Shown piece by piece: positions 7,203 to 58,239 of a stretch of 58,239 nt of DNA. Numbering within the stretch: the first letter of the stretch is position 1; each line of letters opens with the position of its first letter. The notes under the pieces are model-generated. The model was not told where the DNA came from. It searched no databases and worked only from the letters and a program-made list of their open reading frames with translations. The DNA comes from Trichonephila clavata (taxonomy: Eukaryota), in NCBI GenBank assembly GCA_019973975.1, contig BMAO01019611.1:76564-134802 (forward strand). The letters are read 5' to 3'. A program made the position numbers and the translations under genes.

Positions 7203-7331
7203 TTGCATATTATTTTGTATGATTCTCATTTGTTGTATTTTTACCTTATTTGTATGTATTGCATGTCAATTTAAAATTTTACTACTTTTATTGCATATTG
7301 TATCGTAACTATGTTACTGGGGAAGGAGTAA

Positions 7332-28111: not shown

Positions 28112-28488
28112 TATTATTATTGGCAGGAGGCCTCTATTAAGGCGTACATTTGATTAGGATTATTGTTTACACTTTGAACCTGATTATAATTGTTCATTAA
28201 GTTTGGGGTTGTACACATTGCCTGGGTGAACTGTGAAAGTTGCATTAAGCAATTCATAGTCATTTGTAGCATATCTTGTAGATTAAACTTAGTTCCATTG
28301 TTATTAAAGTTATTATTAAAGTTATTTCCAGGCATGTTATAATTTGGAATATTCATATTGTTGGGGGAAAGGTATTTCCTGGTCTCAGTTTGTGCAAAAA
28401 AATCCAGATTTTGGTGGCGCCATCTGTTGTTTATTTTTTGAATTAGAAGTTCCGGCAGCTGCTTGAGCGTAGGAGATGTTGGGGCGAA

Positions 28489-30505: not shown

Positions 30506-32647
30506 TCAAGAGCCAAAACATTATGACCACCCCTACATTTTGCAATGAACTCGCCTGGATGACGTGGAAGGCACGCGATCAGGTGGAAGTGGTATTTAAC
30601 TGCTGCTGGAGAGTCTGAAGAATCATTCTTTCACTTACTTATGTGTGTGACGGGAAAGGCTGCGGATCTAAGCGACTTTGATAGAGGGCAGATTGTGTAA
30701 TGGCTCGGAACAAGTATTTCCGAAACTGCACGACTCATGGGTTGTTCGCGATCTGCACTTGTTAGTACAATAGAAGTCCGATAATCCGGCACGTTCGGGA
30801 CCGGCTCGGTGCCGGACTACCGAAAATTCCGGTCTATCGGGCGGTAATTATAAGAACAATTAGGTTAATAATTAAACTACAAATACAGTATGCAAATACA
30901 TACAACAAAGTTTATTTTACATTTCATATAATATATGTACACGTACTGTTTCATCAGCATTGTAAATCTGTTCAGGTGTTAAATCATTATCAGCCACGAT
31001 TTTCTCAAACTCGTCTTTGTATTTTTCTGCAGAGTTTGGTTTGCTGAAAGTGCTTCTCCAGTTACATCAAGTCTTCGAATTCCATGCCGAAACTTAAAGT
31101 TTCTGAGCCAACCATCAGAATAATTACATTCACTTTCAGCCAACTCCTAAATCTTGGCGGAATTTCTTTGCCTTTTCAACAATCATTGGCCCTGTTACCA
31201 ACTTTCCTTCAGAACGTAATGCACTAAACCATTTGAACAATACACTATCTACCTGTTCCAGTTTTGGTTTTTTTAATGTTTGTCTAGAAGCCAATTTTTC
31301 AGTTGTTACCGATTGAGAAGCAAACTTCATTAGTTCATCTTTTTGTTTTTTAATGTCATAAATAGTTGATGAGCCAATATTAAACTTATCCATTAAAACA
31401 TTTCAATTCTCGCCTTTTTCTAGCCGTTTGATGATTTCTAGTTTCTGATTGAGAGTCAGTGTTACGTGTTTTCGTTTCTCTCCTTTTGAACTCGAAGGCT
31501 TAGGTTTTGAAAACATGGTCACTGTACAGTTAGAACGAAAATCACTTTTTTTATAAACAGTTTCAAAAGTTACGTTTACTGCGATGTGAAAGGACACAAA
31601 ACAACAACGCACAAAAAAATGGCGAAGACGCTTCGTGATTGATTAACGGAGCTGCACTGCACATGAATTTGTTGTGACAGCTGAGACTAGCCGGCCGATA
31701 ATTGTTTCCGAACACTACCGAGCGCTTCCGGATGATCCCGAACTACCCCGAAAACTTCCGAGTAGCTCTCGAGCGTTTTTATTTGCTTTAAAGACACACT
31801 TTTGGAGAAAACCAAAATTTTTACAATTTTCCGGAGCGATGCCGGACTATCGGGCATTCCGGACTGTTGGATGCCGGACTAATGGGCTTCTACTGTACTT
31901 ATGCAAAGTGGATGAATGACGGTGAAGCCAGCAGTAGACGACATGGTGTTGGACGTCCACACGCTATCAAAGAAAAAGGTCGCCTGAGACTGTCTCGCAT
32001 GGTGAAGCAAAACCGGAGCCAGACAGTGGCTCAGTGGGAGAGAGTTGCCTGGTCAGATGAATCACGGTTTGTCATTCATCACGCCGATGGATACGCCGTC
32101 TTCCAGGCGAACAGTTGCTCCCTCAATATACAGTAGGTCATACACAGGCCGGTGGTGGAGGTATTATGCTTTGGAGGACGTTCTCTTGGGCGTCTCAAGA
32201 ACCCGTGGTTGTGGTAGAGCAGATCATGAATGCTACAGGGTATTTGAACATTATTGCGGACCAGTTGCACCCTTACATGGCCTTTTTTTCCAGCTGGAAA
32301 TGGAATCTTCCAACTGGACAACACCCCGTGTCACAAGGCTAAAATTGTGTTGGAGGGGGTTCCAGGAACATGATGCTGAATTCCAGTTAATGTCCTGGCC
32401 GCCTATCTCACCAGATCTCAATCCGATTGAACACATTCGGGATGTCATGGGACGGCAGCTCAGAGTTCAAAGACCACCAATTCACAGTATCTCGGATTTG
32501 CATGACCGTTGTTTAAACATCTGGTACAATCTGCCTCCGGCCATCTACCAAGGACTTGTGATATCCATGCCAAGGCGGGTTGAAGCTATGTTGCGCGCCA
32601 ACTCGTTATTGACAGGTGTTCATAATGTTTTGGCTCTTGAGTGTATA
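30499..32647 (+). mobile_element. Tc1-like DNA transposon with 33-bp terminal inverted repeats, a decayed transposase and a nested insertion
   Basis: TIRs TACACACTCAAGAGCCAAAACATTATGACCACC (30499-30532) and GGTGTTCATAATGTTTTGGCTCTTGAGTGTATA (32615-32647). Transposase pieces: KAADLSDFDRGQIV (HTH, 30650-30780), YAKWMNDGEASSRRHGVGRP…WSDESRF (31890-32100), GGGIMLW…, QLDNTPCHKAK, WPPISPDLNPIEHIRDV…(32045-32662). The left end lies in a (TA)n tract. Confidence 0.8.
30784..31879 (-). mobile_element. pogo/Tigger-like non-autonomous element (deletion derivative retaining only the N-terminal CENP-B/psq-type HTH region) inserted into the Tc1 element at a TA
   Basis: TA at 30782-83 and 31880-81 flank ATCCGGCAC… / …GTGCCGGAC-like inverted termini. 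The ends carry repeated GCCGGACTA(T/C)CG motifs. Minus-strand ORFs 31403-31612 (…KGEKRKHVTLTLNQKLEIIKRLEKGEN) and 31136-31393 (MDKFNIGSSTIYDIKKQKDELMKF…) are typical of the pogo transposase N-terminus. There is no DDE domain. Confidence 0.6.
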
Positions 32648-34539
32648 GTCAGTTCTCGGTAACACGAAGTTGAATGGACCAATGAAAAACTTCTAATTAT
32701 CAAGAGAATAGGAAAAAAATCCCAAAATACACGAAAAGAAATTTTTTTCTAATTTGAAACTATGTAATAACAATTGTACATATGTATAAAATTATTTAAA
32801 AATATTTTTAAAAAGTGGATATTAATGTATAGTATAAATATTATACAGAAGTTAAAAGTCCTGTATTAAAAGAATACATTTATGAATTAGAAACTATAAA
32901 AAGAATACTAACTGTACATAATTAATTTTTTTGACGAGAAAATCTGTTATCTTTTTTTGTTTTATGGCATTCAATGTAACTTTGTCAATAAATTTTTTTA
33001 GAATAAATGAAGCTTGAAAAATGTCTCCATCAACATGATTTCGAAGGGAAAAGTTGCTTAGTTTGTTTAACGACACTTTAGCTTCGGTCAGAGTTATCGG
33101 AGTCAATCAACTCCGGTGGTCATTAAGGCTACGTTAAAGGGGCTACGTTACAGGGGAGACAGCAGAGACAATACAATACAAAACATGTAAGCTCTAGCCT
33201 GTTTGCTACAGGACTCTACATGGTAGTGAGCGTTTGAACTGTTGAGAGTTTCATTTGATAACTTCGAATTATTGCGTGTTATATTCTGGTCAGTCACGGA
33301 TTTTACTTCGGAACATTGAGTGTACTAAAACGTATTGTTTTAGTTTGAAATATCAAGAGTTTTTCTAGGGACTGAGCATATACTTCGAATTAGCGAGAGG
33401 TTTGTATTATCGAAGGTTTGAATTACTGAGAGTCGACTGTATATATGTAGGATATCCCATTGAACTCTTTTTGTAAAAGGTTAGATCATATCCCTGTACA
33501 GAGGACGGTAATTTTGGTTAAAACAGAGCATTCCAGATCAACGCCATCTGGCGGGCTTATAAAACGCCGACATCAACTTTTTTCGGCAGAAGTCCACTAA
33601 CACTTGACAACGAAGCAGCACACCCGCGCCCGTTCGCGGTAACCAGGCGGTTAGTTGCAATCCCATCGCATGATGAGTTTTAAAGCCTTGGGCCCTCCGC
33701 TGTGTGGGGGTTACGGGGATGTACTTTACGCCCCTGTCTCCTACCCCCTTCTTTTTTGCCACTGAGATGGATTTTTTCCTTTACTACCATTTTTTAAGTA
33801 AATGGCATGTCACAATTTAATCAATTTTATTTCAAAACCTAAAAAGGAAATTATTGTTAAAATAATGAAGATGTTAGTTTTGTGTATAATATACTTTTTT
33901 TCCGTCAGGCGTGTTTAAATAATTTGCATAACACAGAGTGGAATGAAAAACTATAAAATTAAAATAAAATACTAAAATGTTTTTATCAGATAGTATTGTT
34001 CTTTTAATGTTTTTTTTTCAGTGAATGTAAACATATCATCCCCCATGGTTTTTTTCTTTTTTTACACTTACGTATGTTTAATCAAACACATTCAAAGATT
34101 TCAGAAAAAAATCGTTTCAAGAGCTATCTGTAGAATTTTTTTTATTATTATTTATAGATAATGGATTTAAATTATATATATTTTAAAACAAAAGGTACAT
34201 TTCTGTTATTTCATTCTAAATTAATAATTTGTTAATAAAAAGTGTATCATCTATTGTTTTGGATGAAAATACGTTTTAAAGACATTTTTAAGGTAACTGT
34301 AGGTAATGTTTGATTGATTAATGAAAGTCTGAAATCTGTTTTATTAATTTAGATTCTTAGAAACTATCTATTATTAAAAAATGATGAAAGTGTGTTTTTG
34401 TTTTACTCTCGGCATCAGAATCGTTTTAATTTTATTGCTTAAAAAATATTTTTTTTAACTAAAGCAATGTTCTTTTTTATAAATCTCTGATCAAAATTTG
34501 AGGATAAATCTTATATCGGGGGAGGGGAAATAGTTCTAC

Positions 34540-40261: not shown

Positions 40262-40708
40262 AACTATACAGTATACTAATAAATACATTAATATTTCACT
40301 TTTTAATGTTTTCTCATTACAAGTATAGATATTCATAATCAAATAAAAATTATATTTATTTTCACATTTTACTATAAGAAAACAATATTAAAGTTTTGAA
40401 AAAATTCTTTCTGAAAATACTGTGAATAAAATGCAAACTACATAAAAAAAATTACGAAACAATCTATGCATAAGGTTTTCTATCCATTAAAAAAGCACAA
40501 GTTTTTATTAAAGTTTAAACAAAAGAAATTCTACATTCTTCAAAGTATTCCATAGTTCATATTTTTCTCTAGTTTAAAAGTAACATGTCTGAAAGAAATG
40601 TCCTGAGAGAAAGCAATGCTGCATATTTCCCTAACATGACTTTTCCTTCCTATGTATATGTAAATATACTTTAAATGACTGGTTTAGGAAAATGCCTAGT
40701 AGCACATC

Positions 40709-41367
40709 TCACAAAGTTTTTTCCTTGGTATGAATCTGTAAATGTTTTTCTAAGCAATGATTTTGTGAAAAACCTTTTTTACACATTTGACAAACATAAG
40801 GCTTTTCATTTGTGTGAATGTGTAAATGTGTTTTTAAATTAGCACTTCGAGAAAAAGACTTTTTGCATATTCCACAAACATGAGGCTTTTCTGCAGTATG
40901 TATCAATAAATGCATTTTTAAATTACTACTTCGAGAAAAAGACTTGTTGCATATTTCACAAACATAAGGCCTTTCTTTTGTATGAATACGTAAATGATTT
41001 TTCAAATCAGAATTATATCAGAGAAACACTTATTGCACATTTCACAAACATAAGGTCTCTCCTTTGTATGAATACGTAAATGTCTAATTAAATCACAACT
41101 AACATAGAAAGACTTATTGCATATTTCACAAATGAAAGGCTTTTCTTTGGTATGAATCAATAAATGTCTTTTTAAATGACATTTTTGAGAGAAACCCTTG
41201 TTGCAGCTTATACAAACATGAGGCTTTTCCTTTGTGTGAATACGTAAATGTACTATTAAGTTACTTCTTTGAGAGAATGACTTGTTGCATGTTTCACAAA
41301 CATGAGGCGTTTTATTGCCATGAACCTTGAAATGACACCTTGAGTTATCATATAAAGTGAAAGCCAT
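40709..41367 (-). pseudogene. C2H2 zinc-finger gene copy 1 (7 fingers), disrupted by a 2-bp insertion/frameshift at ~41003-41020. It also has a small deletion at the N-terminus relative to its paralogues.
   Basis: Minus ORFs 41002-41373 and 40709-41005 are both strings of …[16 protein letters not shown]…H…IH fingers. AATTATATCAGAG here versus AATTATCAGAG in the paralogue at 47870. Confidence 0.7.
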
Positions 41368-42890
41368 TTTCACTAAGATTTTTCACAGCTGTTTAAATAC
41401 ATAAGTCTATTTAAAATCCACAATAAAGAAAATGGGTCTTGCCGTCTTGAACAAAACAGGAGTTTATATTTAAGCCTTCTGTAAAAAAACAAAGTATTCT
41501 TCAGTATGATGTTGAAAATGTAATCAGAATTTTATTCTACATTTTAATTTATGAAAGAAAAAAACCAGCTGGGTATCACAGCTTCATAGAACTGGGTAAG
41601 AATTTTTCCCCTTATATTTGAAGAAATTATTTGGTTCTTTTAGATAGGATTTTTACTGAAATGATCAAAATCTAAAAAATATATATTAAATATTAGTTAC
41701 TACAAAAATATATTCAAGTACTACTTTAGAACTATGATCAGGTTAACACAAGCAAAATGACAAGAAATTATAAGAATATCAGGATAAAATGAAAATACCT
41801 TCTTGAAGAAGAATTCAAAGAGGATATGCATTGTGTAATGGTACAAAAAAACAAGGAAAATTATAAAATTGGAAAGAAAAAAAAACACTGTAAGGCCTAT
41901 ATTTTACCTGTTTGACTTTTGATCTCAATTATGGTTCAAATTACAATTAACAAAAGCTACTTGCAATATACAACCTAATTTTTAACAATGTAACAATATC
42001 ATGGGAGAAGATGTTTGAAATTAGAAAAAGATACTCTTTGTAATCTTTTGATTTACACTTTTTTTATGAAAAGAAAATTTTACACCAGAAATTATGCAAG
42101 AATTAGACTACTCTCCTACCATGGTAACACAAAAGATATATACTCATACTTTATAACTGAAGAAACTTAAGAATAACTTTATTGAAAGAATGGGCTGGAT
42201 CCTAGCTGAGCACACTTCATGGCGACAAAATTTTTGTGATAAAAGTTTACAATATGGTAAGCCTGCAAAATTTAGGAAATAGTAACCCTATTCGGACTGC
42301 ATTTTTTCAGTTTTTCCTGATTTGGACAGCAGTCCTTTTTTTCCTGACGGTCAACTTGAAGACGTGTAAGATTTTTCTAGAAAGCTAAAATTGAAAGAAT
42401 GAGTGGATTTTTTTTCTTTTTTTTAAAAAAAATGAAACAACTGCTGAAAGAATCTTTGTTAGACAGAAAAGGAGATGTGTTGATAAATCCAATTTGGACG
42501 ATGGTTTTTCTCACTATTGCATCTTGCAAGCACTGGTTTTTCTGTTTCTTCTTGAAGCCATTATGGAAACCACGTTAATGTTTTGAAAAAAAAAAAACTT
42601 CTTCCTTAAAATATTACGAATAAAATGTCAAACTATATGAAAAAGACTTATTAAAAAACTTACATATAAGGTTTTCCAGTTGTTATTAAAGTTGAAACAA
42701 AAGAAATCCTACATTCTTCAAAATATTCCACAGCTCACATTTTTCTTTGGTTTAAAAGTAACATGTGTATGAAAGAAATGTCTCGAGAGAAAGAAATGCT
42801 GCATCTTTCCCAAACATGACTTTTCCTTTCTATGTACATGTAAATATGTAATTTAAATTACTGGCTTTGGAAAATGCCTAGTAACACATC

Positions 42891-43715
42891 TCACAAAGTT
42901 TTTTCCTTGGTATGAATCCGTAAATGTTTTTTTAAGCTATTACTATGTGAAAAACTTTTTTTACACATTTGACAAACATAAGGCTTTTCCTTTGTGTGAA
43001 TACGTAAATGTCTTTTTAAATCAACAGCTTGGGAAAACCCCTTGCTACACATTTCACAAATGTGGGGCTTTTCTTTGGTATGAATCAATGAATGTCTTGC
43101 TAAATGACCACTTCGAGAAAAAGAATTGTTGCATATTTCACAAACATAAGGCTTTTCTTTTGTATGAATACGTAAATGTCTTTTTAAACCAACAGCTTGA
43201 GAAAAACTCTTGCTGCATATTTCACAAACATAAGGCTTTTCCTTTGTATGAATGCGTATATGTCTTTTTAAATCCCAACTAACATAGAAAGACTTATTGC
43301 AGAATTCACAAACATAAGGCTTTTCCTTGGTATGAATCTTCAAATGTTTTTTCAAAGAACCAGTATGATTAAAACACTTATTGCACACTTCACAAATGTA
43401 AGGCTTTTCATTGGTATGAATCGATACATGTTTTTTTAAATCACAAAATGCTGAAAAACCCAGGTTGCAGCTTTCACAAACATGAGGCTTTTCTTTTGTA
43501 TGAATATATAAATGTTGTTTTAAATTACCAGCCTGAGAAAAACCCTTGTTGCATATTTCACAAATGTAAGGCTTTTCATTGGTATGAATCAATAAATGTC
43601 TTTCTAAATGACTTTTTTTAGGGAAAGACTTGTTGCATATCTCACAAACATGAGGCTTCTTATTGACATGAACCTGCAAATGACACCTTGAGTTATCATA
43701 TAAAGAGAAAGCCAT
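42891..43715 (-). CDS. C2H2 zinc-finger protein, ~9 tandem fingers with HTKEKPY linkers. This is the intact copy, with ATG at 43715 (the listed 43745 start is GTG).
   Basis: [83 protein letters not shown]… ending …[12 protein letters not shown] candidate 3' splice acceptor (TCTTACAG) lies 14 nt upstream of the ATG on the coding strand. Confidence 0.8.
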   Translation of the reverse strand: MAFSLYDNSRCHLQVHVNKKPHVCEICNKSFPKKSHLERHLLIHTNEKPYICEICNKGFSQAGNLKQHLYIHTKEKPHVCESCNLGFSAFCDLKKHVSIHTNEKPYICEVCNKCFNHTGSLKKHLKIHTKEKPYVCEFCNKSFYVSWDLKRHIRIHTKEKPYVCEICSKSFSQAVGLKRHLRIHTKEKPYVCEICNNSFSRSGHLARHSLIHTKEKPHICEMCSKGFSQAVDLKRHLRIHTKEKPYVCQMCKKSFSHSNSLKKHLRIHTKEKTL

Positions 43716-45587
43716 TTTACCAATTTTCACTGTAAGATTTTCCACAGATAAGTCTAGTTAAAATCCACAATAAAGAAATGGATCTTGCAGTCTTGAACAG
43801 AATAGGAGTTTTTATTCAATCCTTCTATAAAAAAACAAAAAATATTTTTCAGTAAAATGTTGAAAATGCAATCAGAATTTTATTCTACATTTCAATTAAT
43901 GAAAGAAAAAAATTAGCTGGGTATCAGATTTTTAAAGAATTCGGTAAGAGAACTCCCCCCCCCCTTATATTCGAAGAAATTGGTTGGCTTTTAGACAGGA
44001 CTTTTACTGAAATGATTAAAATCAAAAAAATATATATGAAATATTAGTTACTGAAAATATATTCAAATACTACTTTAGAACAATGCTCAGGTTAACATAA
44101 GCAAAATGACAAGAAATTATAAGAATATCATGATAAAATGAGAATACCTTCTCCCGAGAATTCAAAGAGGATATGCATTGTGTAATGGTACAAAAAAACA
44201 AGGAAAATTATAAAATTGGAAAAGAAAAAAAAAAGCACTGTAAGGCCTATATTTTATCTGTTAGACTTTTGATCTCAATTACGGTTCAGATTACAAGTGA
44301 CAAAAGCTACTGGCAATATACAACACAATTTTTAACAATAAATCACAATATCATTGGAGAAGATTTTTGAAATTAGAAAAAGATACTCTTTGTAATCTTT
44401 TGATTTACACTTTTTTTATGAAAAGAAAATTTTACACCAGAAATTATGCAAGAATTAGACTACTCTCCTAGCATGGTAACACAAAAGATATATACTCATA
44501 CTTTATAACTGAAGAAACTTAAGAATAACTTTATTGAAAGAATGGGCTGGATCCTAGCTGGGCACACTTCTTGGGGACAAAATTTTTGGTGATAAAAGTT
44601 TACAATATGGTAACCCTGCAAAATATAGGGAATAGTAACCCTATTCAGACTGGATTTTTTTAGTTTTTCCTGATTTGGACAGCAGTCATTTTTTTCCCTG
44701 ACGATCAACTTGAAGACGTGCAAGATTTTTCTAGAAGGCTAAAATTGAAGGAATGAGTGGATTTTTTTTCTTTTTTTAAAAAATGAAACAACTGCTGAAA
44801 GAATCTTTGTTAGACAGAAAAGGAGACATGTTGATAAATTCAATTTGGACGATGGTTTTTCTCACTATTGCATCTTACAAGCACCGGTTTTTCTGTTTTC
44901 TTCTTGAAGCCATTATGTAAGCCACATTTTCTTTTTTGAAGCTCAGCAAATGGATATATTTTCTTTTGAATGAAAGATGTAAGAAAGAAATGCTTGCTTT
45001 TTGAATGAGTAAACAATTGAAAATACTTCGGTAAGAATAGATGTCCAAAATATGAAAATAATTTGTTTTTGAGAGAAATGGAGATCGTTATTTCATCAGC
45101 CTAAGGCATTCATATTGGACCCCCCCCCCCCACTGTAGCGTTTTAGAAGCATTGCTTGTTCAGTTTTTCTTGTTGAAGTTGTTTTAGAAACCACATTTTC
45201 TTCATAAAAACACGACAGATGTATTTTTTTTAAATAAAAGATAAGGAATTAATGATTGTTTTTTGTACGAATGAAAGATTGATAGAATCTTGTAATAGAT
45301 GACCGAAATTTGCATTTAATTTCTTATTTTTAATTTTATGTTCCCTATGTGTCCGTCTTAGAAACCACATTTTTCGTCTCTTGATGCCACTTTGAAAACC
45401 ACATCTTCATCTCTGACACAATTTTGAAAAATGAATTTTTTTACTTGACGCCATTTAGCGAAAAACTTTTGTCGCTAAATACAGCAACGTGCTGCGCTAG
45501 GATTTTACCAAAGAATGAATAGGACCTATTAGCTAATTTATCTTGGATACAATTTCATAAGAGCCTTTGTTTCTTATGTTGCATGAC

Positions 45588-45694
45588 ATGCAGTGGTGTA
45601 ACAGAGAATATTAGGGCCCCCTGCAAAGTCAGGTTTTGGGCCAATCTAGAACCCTGGCCTCCCCCATGATGTGGGGCTATACGTTACACCACTG
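45588..45694. mobile_element. 107-bp MITE-like element with perfect 12-bp TIRs CAGTGGTGTAAC…GTTACACCACTG and an internal GGGCCCCC palindrome. It belongs to the same GGGCCCC-rich family as the 12122-12287 MITE, and degenerate relatives lie at 13023-13075 and 12730-12790.
   Basis: TIRs read directly. No TSD was recognisable. Confidence 0.45.
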
Positions 45695-45721
45695 GTGTCC
45701 AGCATCCTGTAGCCCTGTGTA

Positions 45722-46035
45722 AACCCTGCTATGTAGAAGAGACAATGCACGGTAAATCTATAAAAGCTAAAAGATTTCAAGTTCTGAGAATTGGGTGAGA
45801 GCTCAACTATTGCCCTTGTTACCTATTGTGGTTCAAAATTATAAGGTGCATTTGAAATAGTTCTTGTCTTGATTCAAAGTGTGATGTACATAAGTAGTCA
45901 AGAAAATCCAGGAAATAAAGTATGTTATTGGATCATTCTAGTCTTATTTGGGATACAAGGGTAATTTTAGCAAAAATAATAGAAATTTTCACGAACATTT
46001 TTTTAAGCTTCACTTTATAGCACTGATAAAAAAAA
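45722..46035. repeat. Dispersed ~310-bp repeat, with a second copy at 49746-50060
   Basis: …CCATGTAGAAGAGACAATGCA…CAAGTTCTGAGAATTGGGTGAGAG…GTGGTTCAAAATTA(T/C)AAGGT…GATTCAAAGTGTGATGTACATAAG…CCAGGAAAT(A/G)AAGTATGTTATTGGATCATT…TTATTTGGGATA… is shared by both copies. Confidence 0.75.
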
Positions 46036-47299
46036 ACCACTTTATGTAATGCAGTAAAAGGTCATGGTCCCTGTAATTATAATTAAGCTGAAATGATAAA
46101 TAAAATTCCTCACTATATCCAAACCAGGAAAGGTAAACTTCATTTAATAAGCAACATACCCATTTCTGGAATTGTAACTCAATTTAAAAATTTTGTTGCT
46201 ATTAACATTTAAAAAGATTCCCCATGTTATATAACTATCAATATTCCTTTGAAGTAGCCTTGAAAGAAAACCCTCTTATAATAAGAAATAATGAATTTCT
46301 GTAATAAAAAAAGTTTTAACATAACCATTATGCATCATCACACTGAAAGTACACCCACAAATTTTAGACTTAAATTTCAAATAAATTTTTTGGGGGAGGA
46401 GGGGGGGGTATAGATCACTATACATCAACTATACTCACAATTACACTTATTTTTTCTTTAATGTAACATGAGAATATTACATATAACTGTACAGTATACT
46501 TAAAAATACATCAATATTTCACTTTTTTTATGCTTTTCACTTAGTATAGATTCATAATCAAATAAAGAATATATTTATTTTCACCCTTTTACTCTAAGAT
46601 AATGTTAATGCTTTGAAGAAAAAAAACATATCTTTCTTAAAATATTGCGAATAAAATGTCAAACTATATGAAAACTTACAATATGGTAACCCTGCAAAAT
46701 TTAGGGAATAGTAACCCTATTCGGACTGGATTTTTTCAGTTTTTCCTGATTTGGACAGCAGTCTTTTTTCCCCCTGACGGTTAACTTGAAGACATGTAAG
46801 ATTTTTCTAGAAAGCTAAAATTGAAGGAATGAGTGGATTTTTTTTCTTTTTTTTAAAAAAATGAAACAACTGCTGAAAGAATCTTTGTTAGACAGAAAAG
46901 GAGATGTGTTGATAAATTCAATTTGGACGATGGTTTTTCTCACTTATTGCATCTTACAAGCACCGTTTTTTCTGTTTTCTTCTTGAAGCCATTATGGAAA
47001 CCACGTTAATGTTTCGAGAAAAAAAAACATGTCTTTCTTAAAATATTACGAATAAAATGTCAAACTATAAAAAAAGACTTATGAAAAAACCTATATATAA
47101 GGTTTTCCAGTTGTTATTAAAGTTGAAACAAAAGAAATCCTACATTCTTCAAAATATTCCACAGCTTACATTTTTCTTTGGTTTAAAAGTAACATGTGTA
47201 TGAAAGAAATGTCTCGAGAGAAAGCAATGCTGCATCTTTCCCAAACATGACTTTTCCTTCCTATGTATATATAAATATATAATTTAAATTACTGGCTTT

Positions 47300-48732
47300 G
47301 GAAAATGCCTAGTAGCACATCTCTCAAAGTTTTTTCCTTGGTATGAATCCGTAAATGTTTTTTTAAGCTATTACTATGTGAAAAACTTTTTTTACACATT
47401 TGACAAACTTAAGGCTTTTCCTTTGTATGAATACATTAATGGCTTTTTAAATCAGAATTATCAGAGAAAGACTTATTGCAGATTTCACAAACATAAGGCT
47501 TTTCCTTTGTATGAATCTTCAAATGTTTTTTCAAAGAACCAGTATGATTAAAACACTTATTGCACACTTCACAAATGTAGGGCTTTTCATTGGTATGAAT
47601 CGATATGTTTTTTTAAACCACAAAATGCAGAAAAACCCAGGTTGCAGCTTTCACAAACATGAGGCTTTTCTTTTGTATGAATATATAAATGTTGTTTTAA
47701 ATTACCAGCCTGAGAAAAACCCTTGTTGCATATTTCACAAATGTAAGGCTTTTCATTGGTATGAATCAATAAATGTCTTGCTAAATTACCACTTCGAGAA
47801 AAAGACTTGTTGCATATTTCACAAACATAAGGCTTTTCTTTTGTATGAATACGTAAATGTTTTTTCAAATCAGAATTATCAGAGAAACACTTATTGCACA
47901 TTTCACAAACATAAGGCCTCTCCTTTGTATGAATACGTAAATGTCTTCTTAAATCCCAACTAACATAGAAAGACTTATTGCATATTTTACAAACATAAAT
48001 CTTTTCCTTGGTATGAATCTTCAAATGTTTTTTCAAAGAACTAGTATGATTAAAACACTTATTGCACACTTCACAAATGTAAGGCCTTTCATTGGTATGA
48101 ATCAATATATGTTTTTTTAAATGAGAAAATGCAGAAAAACACTGGTTGCAGCTTTCACAAACATGAGGCTTTTCTTTTGTATGAATATATAAATGTTGTT
48201 TTAAATTACCAGCCTGAGAAAAACCCTTGTTGCATACTTCACAAATGTAAGGCTTTTCATAGGTATGAATCAATAAATGTTTTGCTAAATGACCACTTCG
48301 AGAAAAAGACTTGTTGCATATTTCGCAAACATAAGGCTTTTCCTTCGTATGAATCTTCAAATGTTTTTTCAAAGAACTAGTATGATTAAAACACTTACTG
48401 CACACTTCACAAATGTAAGGCCTTTCATTGGTATGAATCAATATATGTTTCTTTAAATGAGAAAATGCAGAAAAACCCTGGTTGCAGCTTTCACAAACAT
48501 GAGGCTTTTCTTTTGTATGAATATATAAATGTTGTTTTAAATTACCAGCCTGAGAAAAACCCTTGTTGCATATTTCACAAATGTAAGGCTTTTCATTGGT
48601 ATGAATCAATAAATGTCTTTCTAAATGACTTTTTCTAGGGAAAGACTTGTTGCATATCTCACAAACATGAGGCTTTTTATTGACATGAACCTGCAAATGA
48701 CACCTTGAGTTATCATATAAAGAGAAAGCCAT
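47300..48732 (-). pseudogene. C2H2 zinc-finger gene copy 3 (13 fingers up to 47587, then a 2-bp deletion frameshift; 3 more finger-coding repeats and an in-frame stop downstream). It is either truncated or a pseudogene.
   Basis: ORF 47587-48786 (GTG start; ATG at 48732) ends …KKHIDSYQ*, where the paralogue reads [16 protein letters not shown] versus ATACATG at ~47600. The downstream frame carries DLKSH* at ~47450. Confidence 0.7.
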
Positions 48733-49745
48733 TTTACCAATTTTCACTGAAGATTTTCCACAGATAAGTCTAGTTAAAATCCACAATAAAGAAATGGATC
48801 TTGCAGTCTTGAACAGAATAGGAGTTTTTATTCAATCCTTCTATAAAAAACAGAAAGTATTTTTCAGTAAAATGTTGAAAGTTGTAATCAAAATATTATT
48901 CTACATTTCAATTAATGAAAGAAAAAAATTAGCTGGGTATCAGATTTTTAAAGAATTCGGTAAGAGAATTCCCCCCCCCCCTATATTTGAAGAAATTGGT
49001 TGGCTTTCAGACAAGACTTTTACTTAAATGATTAAAATCAAAAAAATATATATGAAATATTAGTTACTAAAAATATATTCAAGTAATACTTTAGTACTAG
49101 GATCAGATTAACCTAAGCAATGACAGGAAACTAAAGGAATATCATGATAAAATAAGAATACCCTTTTTGAGAATTCAAAGAGGACATGCATTGTGTAATT
49201 GTGCAAAAAAACCATAAAAAATTATAAAATAAACATTGCAATGCCTATATTTTAACTGCTTGATAATTGGTGTCAATTACAGTTAAGATTATAATTAACA
49301 AGAAAGCTATTTGTGTAATAGACAACACAATTTTTAACAATATATCACAATATTATGGGAGAAAATCTTTGAAACTGCAAAAAAATTTTCAGCAAAGGGA
49401 TTTTTAAATTTTTCTAGAAGTATTCTAGGAAAGTTTCTTTTCTAGTAGTATCTTTTTAAATTTAGAAAAAAGAAATTTTTTTCTTTTTTTATAAATTTAA
49501 AAAGATACTCTCCACAATACTTTGATATACACTTCTTTTTATACAAAGAAAATTTTACACAAGAATTAGACTGTTCTGCAGGCAAGGTAACACAAAAGAA
49601 ATATACTGATATTTTATAACTGAACAAACTTAACAATAACCTTATTAAAGCAATGAATAGGCTGTAGTAGAGGTCTTTGACACAATTGCATGAAAGTCAT
49701 TGTTAATGCTGCTACGCTTCCTGGATCCTGTATTAACTAAAAACC

Positions 49746-50060
49746 TGCCATGTAGAAGAGACAATGCATGAAGATTCCATCAAAGCAAAAAAACTTCCAA
49801 GTTCTGAGAATTGGGTGAGAGTTCAGATGTCGTCCTTTTTACCTACTGTGGTTCAAAATTACAAGGTCTATTTAAAATAGTTCTTGTCTGGATTCAAAGT
49901 GTGATGTACATAAGCAATTGAGAAAATCCAGGAAATGAAGTATGTTATTGGATCATTTTAGTCTTATTTGGGATAAAATGGTAGTTTTGGTGAAAAAAAA
50001 CTGAAATTATCACTAACACTTTTTTAAGCTCAACTTTTATAGCATTGATTATTCTGGCTA
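49746..50060. repeat. Second copy of the ~310-bp dispersed repeat
   Basis: See 45722-46035. Confidence 0.75.
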
Positions 50061-50959
50061 AGCAATGAAGTAAATGGTCAAGGACCTTGTAACTATAACT
50101 AAGCTGAAATGATAAATACAATTCTTCACCAGTACATTAAAAGTAAAATTCCTTTAATAAACAATATACCTTTTTCTGGAATAAGAAATCAATATAAAAA
50201 TATTTGGCTAAGAATTTAATTATCCACAGCATGCAAAATTTTGAAAGCTACAAATTAATTAATTTTTTAGAAGAACTTGGATTTTAAACTAAACTGGTTT
50301 TGTAATGATAAATAAAAGTTTTTTGCAGCAGAAAAATTATTAACATATTATTCAAAATATAAGTTAAAGATATGTAAGGATGTACAGAAGTGAATTGTTA
50401 CTCGCACAGTGCAGTTCTTCTCAAATCAGTGAAATAATCTGCTGGAATGTACCTATTGAAATCCGAAAGAAGGACGTAATGTCAAGATTAATGTAATGGC
50501 CTTTTAATTGTAAAATAATTGCACTAAATCATATTTTTAAGTAATTATAAGCATCTTTTATGATTTATTTAGGATTTGAGATTTGAAAGCTTTTGTGATT
50601 CTATGGCAGGTAACAGAAAAGGGATCAATATATTATTGAAAGAAAAATCATCATAAATCTTCAGAAAATGGGGAAATTTTTAAAGAAATTGCTGGAACTG
50701 TTATCAGCAGACATTCATTGTTTCCCAAAGTGTTCATAAGCTACAAATCAACTAAAATTTTACCATCCAAGCTCCGATCCAGCCGCCCATCATCAGTGTC
50801 GGAACTGGTATAGTATATGCCCGGATCTTATGAAAAAGGATTTTTTTTACTATTAAATATGGAGAAGGAGGTATGATATTGTAGGTGCATAGGAAGCCTT
50901 TAAATTGGTAATCGGAAATTTATAGAATCCACAATATACAAAATTGAACTTATTGAAGT

Positions 50960-51310: not shown

Positions 51311-53699
51311 ATCCATTATCGTAGAGGTTTTTTTTCCCCTTTAGGACTTTTGACGCACACGATTTGTGTCGTTCTCAAGTTATAAATATTTGTATAATTT
51401 TATGTAATAATCAGGTAATTGTTGCTTCTTATACTATTTGAACTCAGATCGTTAGAGGAATCAATAAAAAATTGTATTGATTCAGAGACTTCATTTAATT
51501 AGCAATCTTTGCATGATTATGAAAGATGATCGTCTGTACACACTTTCGAAGGCAAGTTAATATCTTTAAACACAATTGTAACAAATGACGGGGAAAAAAA
51601 ACAAAATCTTATTCGACTAGAAATACCATAGGAAAGTGAATAAGTAGTGAGAAAGATGAAACTTGCGAATGAATATGATATATCCCGAAATTGCCAGACT
51701 TACCTAACAAAGAATAAAAGAAATCAGGAAAGAGCCACATACATTGCGCCAAACTGCCATTTAAAAGCCCATAGGGACAAGGAAATCCTAATGTTAAAAA
51801 TAACTGAAATCACCAGGAGGCGCTGACATCGAGACAGACAGGGAAAATTTCCCTTAGGGAAATTTAGGGGGAAATTTGAATTATATATTTGAGTAGTGCG
51901 TCCGTGTTTTATTGTATTTTGAAAAGTAAGATTTTCTTTGGCTTGCTGTAAATAATTTTTTTACTAGCCCATTATTTAACGATTTGGCATAAGTTCGATA
52001 TAAGGAATTTTTTTTTGGCGCCTCGTTCGGGCGATTATGCGCTCGAACCCTCCCTATATGTAAGGGTTATGTTCCCTATATGTAAGGTTACTTCAAATAA
52101 GTCTGATAGATAAAAGGAACAAACAAGGCCGGACGTGTAATGCGCGATTTCGTTGGCAGCACCTATTCCTATTTTTTACAGAGTTGGAATTGAAATTTCT
52201 CTGTTTTGGGGTTGCTATATTTAGCTCGTTATGAATTATTGGCTACTTTCAAAATAATTACAATAAAAAAGTGCAATGTATTGTATTTTTTAAATATGCT
52301 GTGTTGAGTGTGTGTGAATCTAATAACCTATTATAAATATTGTGCGTTTATTGTTTATAACTTTACTACTGAACAATTTCAATGTTTTTTCAATTTTTGT
52401 TTGAATTTTAAGATATAAATATGTTTTCATTGTTTATTTGTTGTATACAAGTTCACACATTAGAAATATGGTATGTTTATAAAATAAAAATTAAGATTAA
52501 ATTTTTAAAAATATTAAATGAAACTGGAAAAACAAATGTAGAACTGTAACTATATTGTAGATTTAAAATAGAAGAGTAAAATATTTTAGTTTTTTGATAT
52601 ATTTTTGATTATTTGCAATTTTTAGTGAATTTAAATAATCCTTATAACATTTGAATCAGGTTTAGCAATTTTTTTCTAAACAGACACTTGAGGATTATTG
52701 TTACAAAATCCTCTTAACTTTTGCAGCTGAAATTAAATCATATTTTCATTTAGAGCAATTCTTATATTATATATAGTATAATAAAATGAAAAAAAATAAG
52801 ACAAAATTATACTACCCACAAAGCTAAATGATAGAAAACAGATTCTAAGAAACATAACTAGAAAAATATTGATATATATATATATATATAATAATTATAT
52901 GTATGTATTAATGATAAAAGAAGAAAATTGTGTTTTATATTTATCTATATCATATTGACTGTTATAAAATGGTAGGAATTACATGCATTGCCTTTTAAAT
53001 ACTGTTTAGAATTAAAATTATTTTCAGCTTATGCTAAACAAAAATTGACTTCAATTCCATATAATATATTTATGTTTGTTTTCTTTCTGTTTCAATTTTT
53101 CATGTTTTTGACTTTCTGTGAGTGTTTTGTTTGATAGATGTTGGATAGTATTACATCCATTCCTCATGTAATTTAACCCTACAGTGAATTTAATTTAATA
53201 GTTTATTATAATATAGGCCTATTTTAGATTTTTTTAAAAAATTTTTAGTTTGTACCAGTTGAAGGCTTCCAAATATTTTATTTATGAAAGTATTTTTGTG
53301 AAATGGTTTATCATAATTAATTTTTTTTCTTATGATTTATATATTTCAAGTTATTTTACTCACAGTTCTTGTTATAAACTGAAGCGAAATAAAAGTGCCG
53401 CTAGGCGGCGTTGTTTTTGACGTCAGTCTGCGAGCTGACGAATAGATTCAGAACTGGTTGTGCTCTCAGGAGTGGATCGAGACAGCACTTTGCAACCTGA
53501 AATTTTAGCGCCATCTGTATTATAATATGGAGACTATCGCATTTTATTTACATTTTGGATAATTTTTACTTTTGATTTCTTGTTATTTTTTGCTTTATTT
53601 TATTAATTGTTTTATTATCTTTCTTGCTATTTTAATTAGTTAATTTGTTTTTTAATTTTCTGTATTCAACTTTTTTATACTTACTGTTTTCAAAAATGG

Positions 53700-55922
53700 A
53701 GACTGAAATGAATGTACATACCACAGACTTAATCTGCTCATTTTGTGATCTAGACTTCACTCGCTCTTTCTGTTTGAAAAGGCATTTGAAAAATGTTCAT
53801 GCTCACCAACAGGGTGATTTAAATGAAGGGATTTTGAAGGAATTCAATACTTTCAGTGGTTTATATTGTTGCATTGTAAAATTTAGTTTATAAATTTACA
53901 CTGTAATAGTATGAATTTTATACATTTACGTATTAATGTTTTCTATTAAAGTTCGCGTAATTTTATATTAATAAATGTAAACTTTCTTTTAATTAACATT
54001 ATAGAATTTGTTACATGGAAAGAAAAAGAAAACAAGACCATGTCAAAATATGTTAGACAACGAGGAAGTAAAACACTTAAAAATGGAGACATAGTGATGA
54101 ATTATCACTGTTGTCGAAGTGGGACATACAAACCAAAAGGAAAAGGTGTCAAGAGTTTAAAGTCACAAGGCTCTGTTAAAATTGGAATTAGTTGCCCAGC
54201 AATAATAAAAGTTAGACAGTACTGAAAATGTAGTAGTGCAATATTTTCCGAATCATAAGAATCAGTTAGAGCACTTAGGGTTATCAGAGTCTGATAGGGC
54301 AGCTGTTGCTGGTATAGTATTTTATTTATGTAGTTTTATTATTCTTAGTTTTATTATTAGTTACTATTGTTAGTTTTGTTTATTTATTTTTCAGGACGAT
54401 TAAAAGAAGGTGTTAGTGAAAAAAAATTCTGCAGGATATTAGAGAAGAAATTACTGTTGACAGTGGCAGAAAGATGCTTATTGAAAAAAAGGATATCCAT
54501 AATATTAAAAGGGACTTCAATATTAATGGTTATATTAAAAGGCATGAAGTTGATGCAGTGAGTGTCAAGCTATGGACACAAGAAATGAAAAATAATGGAG
54601 AAAATTGTATTGTTTTTTTCAAAGAGCAGAGACAATCAGAGAATGACTATGGATTGAAAGATGAAGATTTTGTCCTCATAATCATGACAGATTTTCAGAA
54701 AAAAAATGATTACAAAATATGGAAAGGACAAAATTTGTATAGATGGAACACATGGGCTAAACAGCTATGATTTTAATTTATACTCAGTTGTGGTAGTCGA
54801 TGAACATAAGAATGGAATACCTGTGGCATTTTGTTTTTCCAACAAAAGTTCTGAAGATGTATTCAGAATTTATTTTAGTGCTATTAAAAATGCTGTGGGT
54901 ATAATTGAAACTACAACATTTATGACTGATGATGCTCCAGCATTTTATAATGCTTGGAGTTATGTGATGGGCACAGTTAAAAATGTCTTATTGTGTGCTT
55001 GGCACGTTACAAGAAATTGGCACCAAAATTTAAATAAATTAAAAATCCTGAAAAGAGAAAAATTGTTAATAAAGCATTAAAGGCATGAAAGAGGAACTAT
55101 GTTTAGAAACATTTTCTAAACTTATGAAGCAATTCATACAAGAATTGTTAAATGACTCGGACACTTGTGAATTCGGAAAATATTTCCAACAGAATTATGC
55201 TAAGAGACCAGAAAAATGGGCCTATTGCTACAGGAAGGGTCTGGGCATAAATACAAACATGTATTTGGAGTCCCAATAAAAAAATTAAATATCATTATTT
55301 TGAGGGAAAGCATGTCAAGAGACTAGACATTGCAATCAATGGTCTTTTAAAACTGGTTAGAGACTTAATATTTCAATGCCTAATAAAAATTACAAAAAGA
55401 ACCATTTCCTCTGATAAACTATCAAAAATTGTCAATAGCCACAGATTAGGCCTAGAGATTCAAAGCAATAAAATTGAAAAATTAGCAGATAGCGAGTGGA
55501 AAATTGAATCCAATCATTCTAACTACCTAATATGCAAGAAAGAAGAAGAATGCCATAGATTATGTAATATAAAATGTACTGCCTGCAAAATTTGTATCCA
55601 TTCCTATACATGCTCTTGTGTAGACAATTTAATAAGAGGAAATATTTGCAAGCACATTCATAAAGTTGCCAAAATGTTTTTAAATGATACACATAATGAA
55701 GAAATACAAGAGATTTATGTAAATCAAAATGATATTTTAAAAGAAATATTCGATGTTTTACCATGTAGCTCCAAATCTGCTAATAATGATGGTCATGAAT
55801 CCAAAAAAAGAAAAATTGAAAGCATTCTTGCTCTTTTTGATGAATACGAGCTTACACTAGAAGAAAGTAAAATTCATAGGAACCTAGATAGTATATTTTT
55901 CATTTTTTGTTACTTAAAATGA
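53700..55922 (+). pseudogene. MULE (Mutator-like) transposase: N-terminal C2H2/FAR1-WRKY-like DNA-binding region, MULE catalytic domain and SWIM zinc finger. It is spread over 4 frames (≥3 frameshifts), and the sequence is otherwise well preserved.
   Basis: LICSFCDLDFTRSFCLKRHLKNVH. YHCCRSGTYKPKGKG…GSVKIGISCPAII. DGTHGLNSYDFNLYSVVVVDEHKNGIPVAFCFSNK…FMTDDAPAFYNAWSYVMG…LLCAWHVTRNW (MULE domain). WAYCYRKGLGINTNMYLES. SWIM: CTACKICIHSYTCSCVDNLIRGNICKHIHKV. Confidence 0.75.
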
Positions 55923-56430: not shown

Positions 56431-58239
56431 TTATGGATTATCAAGTCTCTTGGTTTGTTTCAAAAGTCTTCCATAACGAGAACGGAGCACTCCTTGCACC
56501 TCAGGGATTTGATCTTGATCGAGGCAAGAACCATTCTCTACATCTCTTTCTGTTGATGACAAAGAGTCAGCTGTAGTCACTTCTAGCGGATAGAGTTTCT
56601 GAATTGGTCTCATAACACTTCCAAATTGTGTTTTCACTTCCGCTACACGCACTCTTCCATCTTTTCCTTTACACATCCTTGTGACTTTACCTAGAGGCCA
56701 GTTGATTCTTTTGTTGTTGGTATCACCAATTAGAACGAGATCACCTTCTTTAATGAACGACTCTCTTTTAACTTTTGAATAATCTTTCAATATCCCTAGA
56801 TACTCATTTCTGAAGCGGTTTCGCAGATCTTGACGCAATTTCAGCCTATAAGCACACCTCTTGTTCAATCTTTTTCAATCTATCATGTCCAGATCTGGAA
56901 CACCAACCTCTCTAATTTCCTGGAGAAACATAGATGGTGTAAGTGCTGATAGTTCATCAGGATCCTCTGAGTGGTATGTTAAGGGGCGAGAATTAATTAA
57001 ACTCTCTGCGTCGCATAACACAGTGACCAATTCTCCTTCGTTCAAACAAGCTCTCCCCAGAACTTTTCTCAAAATACTCTTCAATAATCCTATCAGCCTC
57101 TCCCAGAAGCCACCCCACCAGGGTGCAGCAGGAGGACTAAATTTCCAGGAAATTCTTTTTTCTGATGCAAAATTTTCGATTTTTTTTCCCAATTAATATT
57201 CTTTAAAAAATTGGCTGTGCCCACAAGATTCTTTCCTTTGTCAGAATAAACAGTGGAAGGACGTCCTCTTCTAGCTATGAACCGCCGAAGAGCCAGTATA
57301 AAGCATTCGGTGGACAAAGGTGACACCAGCTCTAAATGCACAGTTCGGTAAACAGCACAGGTGGCAAGCACTATCCAGCACTTTTTGTCAGTTTTTAGGA
57401 ACAAAGGTCCACATAGGTCAATGCCAGTAACTTCAAAGACAGCAGAATCCCTGACTCTGTCTTCTGGAAGAGGAATGCTCACGGCTTCCAATGGACGGGC
57501 AGAAAATCTTCTACACTTGGCGCATTTTCTTATCACGCCTCCCACTGTCTTTCTACTCTTAATTATCCAAAAGGATTCTCTGAGGCATGACATCAGTGTC
57601 TGAGTACCTGCATGTTCTAACTCTATGTGTTTGCTCATTATCAATTTTTCGACCATTTGATGCTTGTGGGGCAACAGTACTGGAAATCTAAAAGTCTGTA
57701 AATCTTTCCTCGATGCAATTCTAGTTTCAACTCGTAGGAGATCATCGTTGTCTTTCACAATTCGCAAGTTCAACTTCTCTCCTCCTGAAAAAACTTCTCT
57801 CTGTATTTCCTTCAAAATTACTTTTTCCGATGCTTTAATTTCGTCTGTTTCCAATTTTCCCTTTTTCCTGTCAATAGGGTTTCTTTTCACATTCTTACAA
57901 AATCGGATGACATATGCCATTATTCTTACGATTTTGTTAAAAGAAGATATTTTCTGAAAAAATGTAAATCTACAAAGGTCTAAAGCAGTAGTTGTGAGTA
58001 CAGTTCTTCTTCTCTCGGAAATGACTATTTCCATATCGGGCTTTATTTCACTAGCTGGCCATTCTTCATGGGGTAGTTTTAACCAGTCGGGTCCCTCCCA
58101 CCAATGGGATTTCAATAAGTCTTTAGGATTGCACCCCCTTGAGGGCAAATCTGCTGGATTAAATTTCCCTTGAATATGTCGCCAAGCTTCTGGATCCGTC
58201 AATTTCCGTATTTCATTGACTCTGTTAGTTATAAACGCA
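56431..58239 (-). mobile_element. 3' part of a BEL/Pao-type LTR retrotransposon pol (RNase H end + integrase). It continues beyond the window edge, and the internal region ends at ~56431.
   Basis: Minus ORFs: 57093-58202 (…NPADLPSRG…[47 protein letters not shown]…GIDLCGPL…). 56875-57192 (…[20 protein letters not shown]…). 56431-56868 (IN C-terminus). The pol frame is interrupted between these ORFs. Confidence 0.75.

Follow-up and report, generated by a model that had tools for sequence, protein, structure and literature searches.

Three poly-C2H2 zinc-finger arrays form a recently duplicated, structurally dynamic cluster in transposon-rich DNA of the spider Trichonephila clavata

Analyses of a 58,239-nucleotide stretch of Trichonephila clavata DNA (hereafter, the window) identified three arrays of C2H2 zinc fingers on the minus strand, which we refer to as copies A, B and C and which have 7, 9 and 16 fingers, respectively. 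These counts, obtained by tandem repeat analysis (TRF) and a finger scan, bore out the original prediction of three minus-strand poly-C2H2 exons with 7, 9 and 13–16 fingers. By TRF the arrays consist of 84-bp finger units in 6.5, 9.0 and 16.2 copies. A regular expression search of all six frames found 30 intact C-x2-C-x12-H-x3-H fingers, and two further fingers, broken by frameshifts, were added by hand to give a total of 32. These repeats matched PF00096/PF13465 and are of the C2H2 (Krueppel-type) class; the E-values of the Pfam zf-H2C2_2 and zf-C2H2 matches on the arrays ranged from 1e-26 to 1e-89. The C, C, F, L, H, I and H positions, which include the zinc ligands, were identical in all 32 fingers, and the closest solved structure was that of ZNF568 (E = 1e-73); with these Pfam and PDB matches there is no ambiguity about the fold.

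Copy B (42891–43715, minus strand), defined from the ORF list, Pfam and a shuffle test, is an intact ORF of 274 amino acids with nine complete fingers, and is the only undamaged copy of the three. Its ATG is at 43715, its stop codon follows TKEKTL, and a half finger devoid of cysteines (FSLYDNSRCHLQVH) is located N-terminal to the complete fingers. There were 284 open codons in B and 399 in C, compared with a median of ~60 and a maximum of 121–169 in shuffled sequences, the ORF of B being 4–5 times the shuffle median length; the open frames of both copies are far above chance. HMMER/BLASTP-type searches with the 42891–43715 product, suggested by the original prediction, returned Pfam C2H2 domains and, as the nearest proteins, zinc-finger proteins (ZNFs) of Trichonephila clavipes with 59–69% identity.

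The other two copies are disrupted. Copy A (40709–41373, minus strand; ORF list, Pfam and finger scan) has the conserved ATG at 41367 (MAFTLYDNSR...) and a stop right after TKEKTL, and in its finger 4 a 2-bp duplication of TA (~41010) has split the array into ORFs at 41002–41373 and 40709–41005. Fingers 5–7 of A, although out of frame, can be read through in their own frame without meeting a stop, which indicates that this frameshift was recent. The open part of copy C (47587–48732, minus strand) starts with an ATG at 48732 and has 12 intact fingers and a truncated 13th, which was cut by a 2-bp deletion (CATGTATCG to CATATCG). Beyond it, the finger scan located a dead tail (47343–47586, minus strand) in which fingers 14–16 are out of frame, with two stops, one within finger 15 and one in the linker between fingers 15 and 16; the stop codon of the family has been lost (TKEKTLR). 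Frameshifts and whole-finger gains and losses between copies had both been predicted, and both were seen when the fingers of A, B and C were compared, with neither 2-bp frameshift occurring in a homopolymer. Given the damage to A and C, no more than one or two of the copies are functional.

The linkers between fingers were found to be non-canonical, as had been proposed. In the census of 32 fingers the first position was T in 29, the second K in 19, N in 11, A in one and Y in one, the third E in 29, the fourth K in 26 and R in five, the fifth P in 31, and the sixth Y in 20 and H in 10. None of the 32 had the position 2 glycine of the canonical TGEKP(Y/F) linker; T, E, K and P were otherwise kept, giving a variant, T-K/N-E-K-P, that is also present in the spider relatives. 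Such a linker is not a mark of this locus, however, as the glycine-less form was in all Trichonephila relatives inspected and was predominant in matches from damselfly, shrimp, sea-spider and brittle-star.

Comparison of the fingers revealed marked differences between scaffold and helix. Entropy across fingers peaked at positions −1, +1, +2, +3, +6 and +9, and amino-acid variation was concentrated at helix positions −1, +1, +2, +3 and +6. The pN/pS ratio was 0.37 for the scaffold (below 1, p = 1.3e-4), 1.98 for the helix positions and 3.8 for the four contact residues, values to be read with the caveat that gene conversion blurs finger orthology. Helix and scaffold ratios differed (Fisher p = 8.5e-4), and the scaffold was under purifying selection as the copies diverged. 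The original prediction had named finger positions −1, 2, 3 and 6 as those to examine for positive selection; variation is indeed concentrated there, but the excess of pN/pS over 1 at the contact residues was not significant (p ~0.1).

These data bear on whether all three copies could be relics of a once-active ZNF family, with B merely unhit so far. The frameshifts in A and C, together with the two stops and lost terminator of C, would fit such a dead array, as would the fragmentary or transposable element (TE)-fused state of many T. clavipes relatives (one locus, L002, also has a frame change). There was in addition no AATAAA or ATTAAA in the ~600 nt downstream from either B or C, and the exact B protein, with either start codon, had no match in public assemblies or Logan. 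We nevertheless consider this explanation unlikely. Disabling mutations were found in A and C but not in B, which has retained 274 open codons in DNA of ~30% GC, against ~60 in shuffles; none of the 32 fingers has lost a zinc ligand; the scaffold ratio indicates constraint while the copies diverged; and fingers 5–7 of A are still stop-free in their own frame.

Alignment of the copies with their flanks showed that the units are less alike than the identity of at least 90% originally estimated, as long BLAST alignments between units had 84.9–86.5% identity and the flanks alone had 86–95%. The 3' flank of B (42574–42890, minus strand), whose first ~100 nt past the stop is decayed finger sequence, has homologues at 40400–40708 for A (86.3%) and 47005–47321 for C (94.9%), and the 5' flank of B (43716–44925, minus strand) has homologues at 41374–42573 for A (92.5%) and 48733–49655 for C (88%). 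Tandem units of ~2.3 kb had been proposed, and a spacing of 2.35 kb does hold between A and B; that between B and C is 4.4–5.0 kb because a 1.7-kb spacer (44926–46603, hereafter X) and a gutted fourth unit of ~0.4 kb (46604–47004, minus strand) lie between them. The gutted unit has lost its array and inner flanks, and the first 70 bp of a 3' flank (46604–46674) is joined directly to the last 329 bp of a 5' flank (46676–47004). Spacer X had no domain matches. Part of it (45721–46195) recurs upstream of C (49740–50206, 80%), and its end (46485–46674) matches both the flank before A (40262–40448) and, in T. clavipes, the 3' flank of locus L002.

The 50-bp motif originally described as marking the unit junctions corresponds to a novel duplication joint at 42545–42596 (…GGAAACCAC/GTTAATG…, the joint itself being ACCAC/GTTAATG), at which the 3' flank of B meets the distal part of the 5' flank of A. 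A second copy, 96% identical, is found where the gutted unit borders copy C (46976–47027). At 44897 only the first ~28 nt of the motif are shared, after which B enters unique DNA. The junction segment ends in A12 on the plus strand, and we considered the possibility that it is a SINE that had mediated the duplication; we dropped this reading because the segment has no other copy in the window and no tRNA or Rfam match.

Identities of 96–100% were reached only by orthologous fingers of B and C. Across the copies, the finger matches (B1 and C1, 98%; B2, C2 and C12, 100%; B3 and C13, 98%; B4 and C14, 99%; B9 and C16, 99%; A4 and C10, 98%) make up a mosaic, a pattern that unequal crossing-over or gene conversion could have produced. 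Within copy C the module SQAGNLKQ / SAFxxLKK / NHTxSLKK is present three times, in fingers 2–4, 6–8 and 12–14.

From the joints and identities in the one assembly of this repeat-rich stretch, we propose the following history. An ancestral gene comprising ~0.3 kb of 3' flank, the finger exon and ~1.2 kb of 5' flank would have been tandemly duplicated, creating the one novel joint, after which the pair and upstream DNA would have been block-duplicated to give [A][B]-X-[A'][C]. A' would then have been gutted by deletion, while C probably expanded from ~9 to 16 fingers through internal duplication of modules of 3–6 fingers, and fingers may have been shuffled between copies through unequal crossing-over or gene conversion. 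The 2-bp frameshifts in A and C would have come last. Repeats at two scales (84 bp and ~2.35 kb) in one assembly could also mean that mis-assembly or uncorrected long-read errors gave rise to the observed number and arrangement of the units, and perhaps to the frameshifts as well. We regard this as extremely unlikely, as copies that differ by 5–15% and have distinct finger orders are too divergent for artefactual collapse or expansion, and the two frameshifts, each of 2 bp, do not fall in homopolymers.

The prediction that the surrounding DNA would be dense in transposons was upheld: the window has an LTR retrotransposon (2975–7558), LINE-like ORFs (26450–29800), a DDE_3 fragment, a MULE and a BEL/Pao-like integrase. 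The best match of the TE integrase in the window was from T. clavipes (73–94%). All three arrays are located in this transposon-rich DNA. Antisense frames had also been described as open, and there are antisense ORFs of 111, 150 and 83 amino acids; the best antisense frame nonetheless carries 5–13 stops and is only partly open. No credible domain was found in these ORFs, and we rejected them as genes. A PPI_Ypi1 match had no significant stretch and fell on periodic low-complexity sequence. The open antisense stretches most plausibly arise as a side effect of the 84-bp period of the finger codons.

The setting raises the question of whether the ZNF exon together with its conserved flanks is a mobile unit of ~2.3–3.3 kb, either belonging to a TE or carried along by one, or whether recombination duplicated a host gene. 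Units of comparable size whose 5' and 3' flanks can be aligned occur at two unlinked T. clavipes loci as well as here, and the relatives always adjoin TEs, with gene models fused to mariner, gag, IS1595-like and RNase H pieces. We think a mobile origin very unlikely, however: comparison of the three loci found no terminal repeats, target-site duplications, gene-strand poly(A) tail or transposase of the unit, and the junction segment is unrepeated elsewhere in the window. Moreover, the TE neighbors at each locus are of unrelated classes, which fits chance adjacency in TE-rich DNA, and one novel joint is common to the local copies, as is usual when unequal crossing-over follows a tandem duplication.

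An upstream exon encoding an effector domain (ZAD, BTB or SCAN/KRAB-like) had been envisaged. Pfam searches found no KRAB, ZAD, BTB or SCAN domain in the ORFs or in minus-strand open segments of at least 30 amino acids lying 1.5–4.8 kb upstream of each array, a scan that farther-off or shorter exons could escape. The 5' flank of B does have splice-like signals, a donor (AAG/GTATT) at ~44147 and an acceptor (YAG/AAGG) at ~43825, both conserved in two T. clavipes loci. From these signals, the interval between them may represent a candidate 5'-UTR intron of B, for which an alternative acceptor would lie at ~43729.

The closest relatives of the cluster are predicted T. clavipes ZNFs (GCA_019973935.1), for example P0069 ("zinc finger protein 233"), P0061 and P0021 ("zinc finger protein 112"). 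These share with the cluster a common N-terminus (MAFTQENSRHHLHVH) and half finger (MAF/MDF-xx-NSR-HL-VH), linkers of the TKEKP/TNEKP type and TE-rich surroundings. Their non-coding flanks can also be aligned on both the 5' and the 3' side, the alignment with two T. clavipes loci extending over ~450 bp of 5' flank. The T. clavipes genes are not orthologues of those in the cluster, nucleotide identity being ~75–79%, and both loci examined have a single array within ±10 kb, in contrast to the tandem cluster here. Many of the T. clavipes relatives are short fragments, or database models fused to TE fragments. A short N-terminal query matched only T. clavipes fragments and other ENA sequences, and a literature search for "TKEKP" or for spider or Trichonephila ZNF expansions found nothing relevant.

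The cluster combines a clear anatomy and C2H2 identity with invariant zinc ligands, a constrained scaffold and variable specificity residues, and in its finger turnover, frameshifts and contact-position variation it agrees with the original description of a recently duplicated, structurally dynamic poly-C2H2 family. We consider it probable that these poly-C2H2 genes, effector-less or of unknown effector, make up a lineage-specific birth-and-death cluster in the genome of an orb-weaver. Judged by its sequence, copy B most likely encodes a predicted 274-amino-acid sequence-specific DNA-binding protein whose nine fingers would each read ~3 bp via helix positions −1, +2, +3 and +6; we infer that B may be expressed, that its product may bind DNA and that it might have a role in transposon recognition. 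A more ambitious reading, which we regard as doubtful, is that of an undescribed spider poly-ZNF family, effector-less or with a novel effector, that is defined by its glycine-less T-K/N-E-K-P linker and N-terminal half finger and has expanded in tandem in TE-rich DNA. Its contact residues would have diversified for transposon recognition, its linker would alter DNA locking, and it would be an independent chelicerate counterpart of the KRAB-, ZAD- and FiNZ-ZNFs.

The locus is of interest as a clean textbook case of birth and death, in which tandem and block duplication, deletion, finger-module duplication, gene conversion and pseudogenization can be followed within 10 kb. Functional support for co-evolution of ZNFs and transposons comes only from vertebrates, with statistical support across metazoans, and if the spider family is active it would extend this co-evolution to chelicerates. 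An active family would also provide a natural test of the contribution of the conserved linker glycine, as the whole family has replaced it by Lys or Asn.

Among known systems, the tetrapod KRAB-ZFP (KZFP) clusters resemble this locus in their tandem genes with the whole finger array in one exon, finger gain and loss, contact-residue-focused variation (here with pN/pS not significantly above 1), pseudogenized members and TE-rich setting, and ZNF568, the nearest solved structure, is itself a KZFP. They differ in having the KRAB domain (PF01352), which was not found here in ORFs or upstream open segments, and the canonical linker glycine. KRAB/TRIM28 silencing is a vertebrate system, and the original portrayal of the locus as the invertebrate counterpart of transposon-tracking KRAB-ZFP clusters should be taken as an analogy and is overstated as a finding. 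BTB-ZF and SCAN-ZF genes are not matched, there being no BTB or SCAN exon in the same ORFs and segments. Insect ZAD-ZNF clusters are likewise lineage-specific, clustered and rapidly evolving poly-ZNF genes of arthropods (PMC7655104); ZAD (PF07776), however, was detected neither here nor in the precomputed Pfam lists of the spider protein matches, and only insect matches carry it. Lineage-specific tandem-ZNF expansions correlate with TE load across metazoans, whatever their accessory domain (Wells et al. 2023, PMC10547256), in a paper whose main text does not mention spiders, arachnids or linkers. The expansions it describes, among them the cyprinid FiNZ-ZNFs, extend to arthropods and are like the present cluster in their independence of accessory domains and co-location with TEs. 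The locus is a genuine, if unremarkable, case of a fast-duplicating gene family of a familiar sort, and not a new kind of system.

Analyses of the finger arrays indicated that poly-C2H2 genes form a tandem cluster here that is young and in part decayed, a type of locus that is already well known and not exceptional. TRF resolved three minus-strand arrays of 84-bp units (copies A, B and C; 6.5, 9.0 and 16.2 units, respectively), within which a six-frame regular expression scan identified 30 intact C-x2-C-x12-H-x3-H fingers and a further two broken by frameshifts. The arrays were matched by Pfam zf-H2C2_2 and zf-C2H2 (E = 1e-26 to 1e-89), and their closest solved structure was the KRAB zinc-finger protein (KZFP) ZNF568, followed by Aart, PRDM9 and CTCF. 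The core of the original prediction, three minus-strand finger exons, was correct, with finger counts of 7, 9 and 16.

Copy B (42891-43715, counted from the conserved ATG) has nine fingers in an intact ORF of 274 aa and is probably functional. Copy A (40709-41373), whose seven fingers lie in two ORFs split by a "TA" duplication within finger 4, is probably dead. Copy C (47343-48732) is cut down to 12 in-frame fingers out of 16, as a 2-bp deletion in finger 13 ends its ORF at 47587; its last three fingers contain two stop codons, and the terminal stop of the family is gone. The indels in A and C are both outside homopolymers, which makes sequencing error a less likely source for them than genuine mutation. 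The longest open frames of B and C (284 and 399 codons) compare with about 60 codons (maximum 121-169) in permuted array sequences of roughly 30% GC. The antisense ORFs that had been noted were real (111, 150 and 83 aa), but they open one antisense frame only in part, and a domain search of them found no credible domain. These openings are best explained by codons recurring every 84 bp, so that a frame free of stops in one finger tends to be so in its neighbors.

A 32x32 nucleotide identity matrix of the fingers of A, B and C revealed a mosaic. B1 and C1 were 98% identical, B2, C2 and C12 100%, B3 and C13 98%, B4 and C14 99%, B7 and C11 96%, and B9 and C16 99%. A4 was 98% identical to C10, even though the other fingers of A diverge more than those of any other copy. 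B6 and B8 chiefly resembled each other (85%), and the module SQAGNLKQ / SAFxxLKK / NHTxSLKK occurred three times in C. Such a mosaic is the pattern left when unequal crossing-over and gene conversion act both within and between arrays. The residues C, C, F, L, H, I and H were invariant in 32/32 fingers, and entropy across all 32 peaked at helix positions -1, +1, +2, +3, +6 and +9. Nei-Gojobori counts over matched finger pairs gave a scaffold pN/pS of 0.37, significantly below 1 (p = 1.3e-4), and 1.98 for the six helix positions, the contrast between helix and scaffold being significant (Fisher p = 8.5e-4). These data indicated that purifying selection held the scaffold while the copies diverged. 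At the four canonical contact positions, where the original prediction proposed to look for positive selection, pN/pS was above 1 (3.8), but not significantly so (p ~0.1). The specificity residues were thus, at a minimum, free of constraint and may have undergone diversifying selection, in a small sample whose counts are affected by gene conversion.

The arrangement of the copies was less simple than three 2.3-kb units at least 90% identical, as first proposed: long BLAST alignments between units were 84.9-86.5% identical, and only A and B are a true tandem pair. Their offset was 2344-2352 bp in the 5'-flank register and 2178-2180 bp in the 3'-flank register, a difference of two fingers. Flank-only identities were 92.5% (5') and 86.3% (3') for A-B, and 88.3% (5') and 94.9% (3') for B-C. 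Part of the 3'-flank conservation, which extends to the T. clavipes loci described below, is explained by the first ~100 nt after each stop being decayed finger units, into which the 84-bp periodicity continues (minus strand; 42780-42890, 40600-40708 and 47210-47342 for B, A and C), which places the origin of the family stop codon within a linker (HTKEKTL*) of a formerly longer array.

The "50-bp motif" reported at unit junctions is duplicated, at 42545-42596 and 46976-47027 (96% identical), but is really one novel joint (…GGAAACCAC/GTTAATG…), in which the distal 5' flank of one unit abuts the first bases of the 3' flank that belongs to the following unit. The joint is only half-matched at 44897, where the match stops at the breakpoint and unique DNA follows, which we interpret as ancestral upstream sequence. 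The 1.7-kb spacer between B and C, in which a domain search found none, adjoins a gutted 0.4-kb unit (46604-47004) of 70 bp of 3' flank joined to the final 329 bp of 5' flank. The spacer end (46485-46674) matches both the flank before A (40262-40448) and the 3' flank of a T. clavipes relative. In the simplest history, a single tandem duplication would have made the joint, a block duplication would then have produced [A][B]-X-[A'][C], where X is the spacer and A' the later gutted unit, and the interior of A' would have been lost by deletion. In addition, an unannotated 475-bp segment with no ORF or domain occurs twice at 80% identity, upstream of B at a distance of 2.0 kb (45721-46195) and upstream of C at 1.0 kb (49740-50206). 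It may have a regulatory role common to both copies, or may just have been carried along in the block duplication.

The transposon-dense setting was borne out by LTR, LINE-like, Tc1/mariner, pogo-like, MULE and BEL/Pao-like elements; no Rfam families or tRNAs were found in the window. A near-complete plus-strand Ty3/gypsy-like retrotransposon (2975-7558) has LTRs (2975-3208 and 7332-7558) of 94% identity and ORFs broken up by frame breaks: gag-like DUF7041 (3236-4060), an ORF without a Pfam match where the protease would be expected (4141-4677), RT/RNase H (4961-5806) and integrase (6105-7202). Its LTR divergence (~6%) is near that of the B-C flanks, so the element may have inserted at about the time of the B/C duplication. 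Fragmented minus-strand LINE-like (non-LTR) ORFs (~26450-29800), which by eye resemble an endonuclease, a reverse transcriptase start and a gag, coincide with a rise in GC content to 38-42%, where GC skew reaches +0.35. DNA-transposon ORF fragments occur at 24841-25062 (-), 31136-31393 (-) and 32045-32662 (+), the last matching Pfam DDE_3; the others include, by eye, one fragment resembling Tc1 and another with a pogo/CENP-B-like HTH. A plus-strand MULE region (~53645-55080; transposase domain 54706-55080) has a lone weak C2H2 finger upstream of that domain (53735-53800, Pfam E = 0.0016), and the two are probably one decayed Mutator-like element unrelated to the cluster. A minus-strand BEL/Pao-like integrase (Integrase_H2C2, DUF5641; 56431-58202) reaches the window edge.

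The highest-identity ZNF matches were T. clavipes predictions (59-69%), two of which begin MAFTQENSRHHLHVH or MDFTQGNSRHHLHVH, a Cys-less half finger with which A, B and C also start. The Ty3/gypsy-like integrase of the window also matched T. clavipes best (73-94%), followed by Araneus ventricosus and Nephila pilipes, which points to a nephilid or araneid orb-weaver, most likely Trichonephila, as the source of the window. Two T. clavipes loci (L001 and L002, assembly GCA_019973935.1) carry single arrays, one with a frame change, and have gag-like/RT, Pao and Mutator genes next to them, the Mutator gene being near the array in L002. Their flanks can be aligned with those of the window copies at ~73-79% identity over about 450 bp on the 5' side and several hundred bp on the 3' side. 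Donor-like AAG/GTATT and acceptor-like YAG/AAGG in the conserved 5' flank were invariant (5/5 sequences), and a candidate 5'-UTR intron is a reasonable guess. T. clavipes gene models join the ZNF exon to unrelated TE pieces (mariner, gag DUF1759, IS1595-like DDE, RNase H), and many related entries are flagged UNVERIFIED_CONTAM; spider members of this family thus seem to be poorly annotated in the databases.

The non-canonical linker was real: the canonical glycine occurred in none, position 2 being K (19), N (11), A (1) or Y (1), with T, E, K/R and P conserved. It was not unique, as TKEKP/TNEKP linkers were present in every Trichonephila relative inspected. Among the top 120 database matches, a list biased by the query, glycine-less linkers prevailed in damselfly, penaeid shrimp, sea spider and brittle star proteins, and TGEKP in most insect and vertebrate matches. 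A full-text literature search for "TKEKP" returned nothing relevant. This family-wide linker is one of two mildly interesting features, the second being that the spider family seems undescribed in the literature searched.

Pfam identified no KRAB, ZAD, BTB, SCAN or other domain in the ORFs of A, B and C, nor any in the minus-strand open segments of at least 30 aa that lie upstream of the arrays, over 1.5 kb for A, 3.4 kb for B and 4.8 kb for C. KRAB/ZAD/BTB/SCAN-type domains were likewise absent from precomputed Pfam lists of the spider relatives. The family looks to be ZNF-only, or to have an effector exon that lies far away or escapes detection by its shortness. Arthropods are among the animals with lineage-specific expansions of tandem ZNFs, which follow TE content whatever the accessory domain (Wells et al. 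2023, PMC10547256), spiders being absent from the main text of that study. By analogy, a TE-tracking role for the spider cluster is plausible. KZFP clusters have KRAB, whereas the spider cluster had none in the ORFs and upstream segments searched; with no effector domain found there, the likeness to KZFP clusters drawn in the original prediction is not one of membership or demonstrated function, but of evolutionary style and genomic setting.
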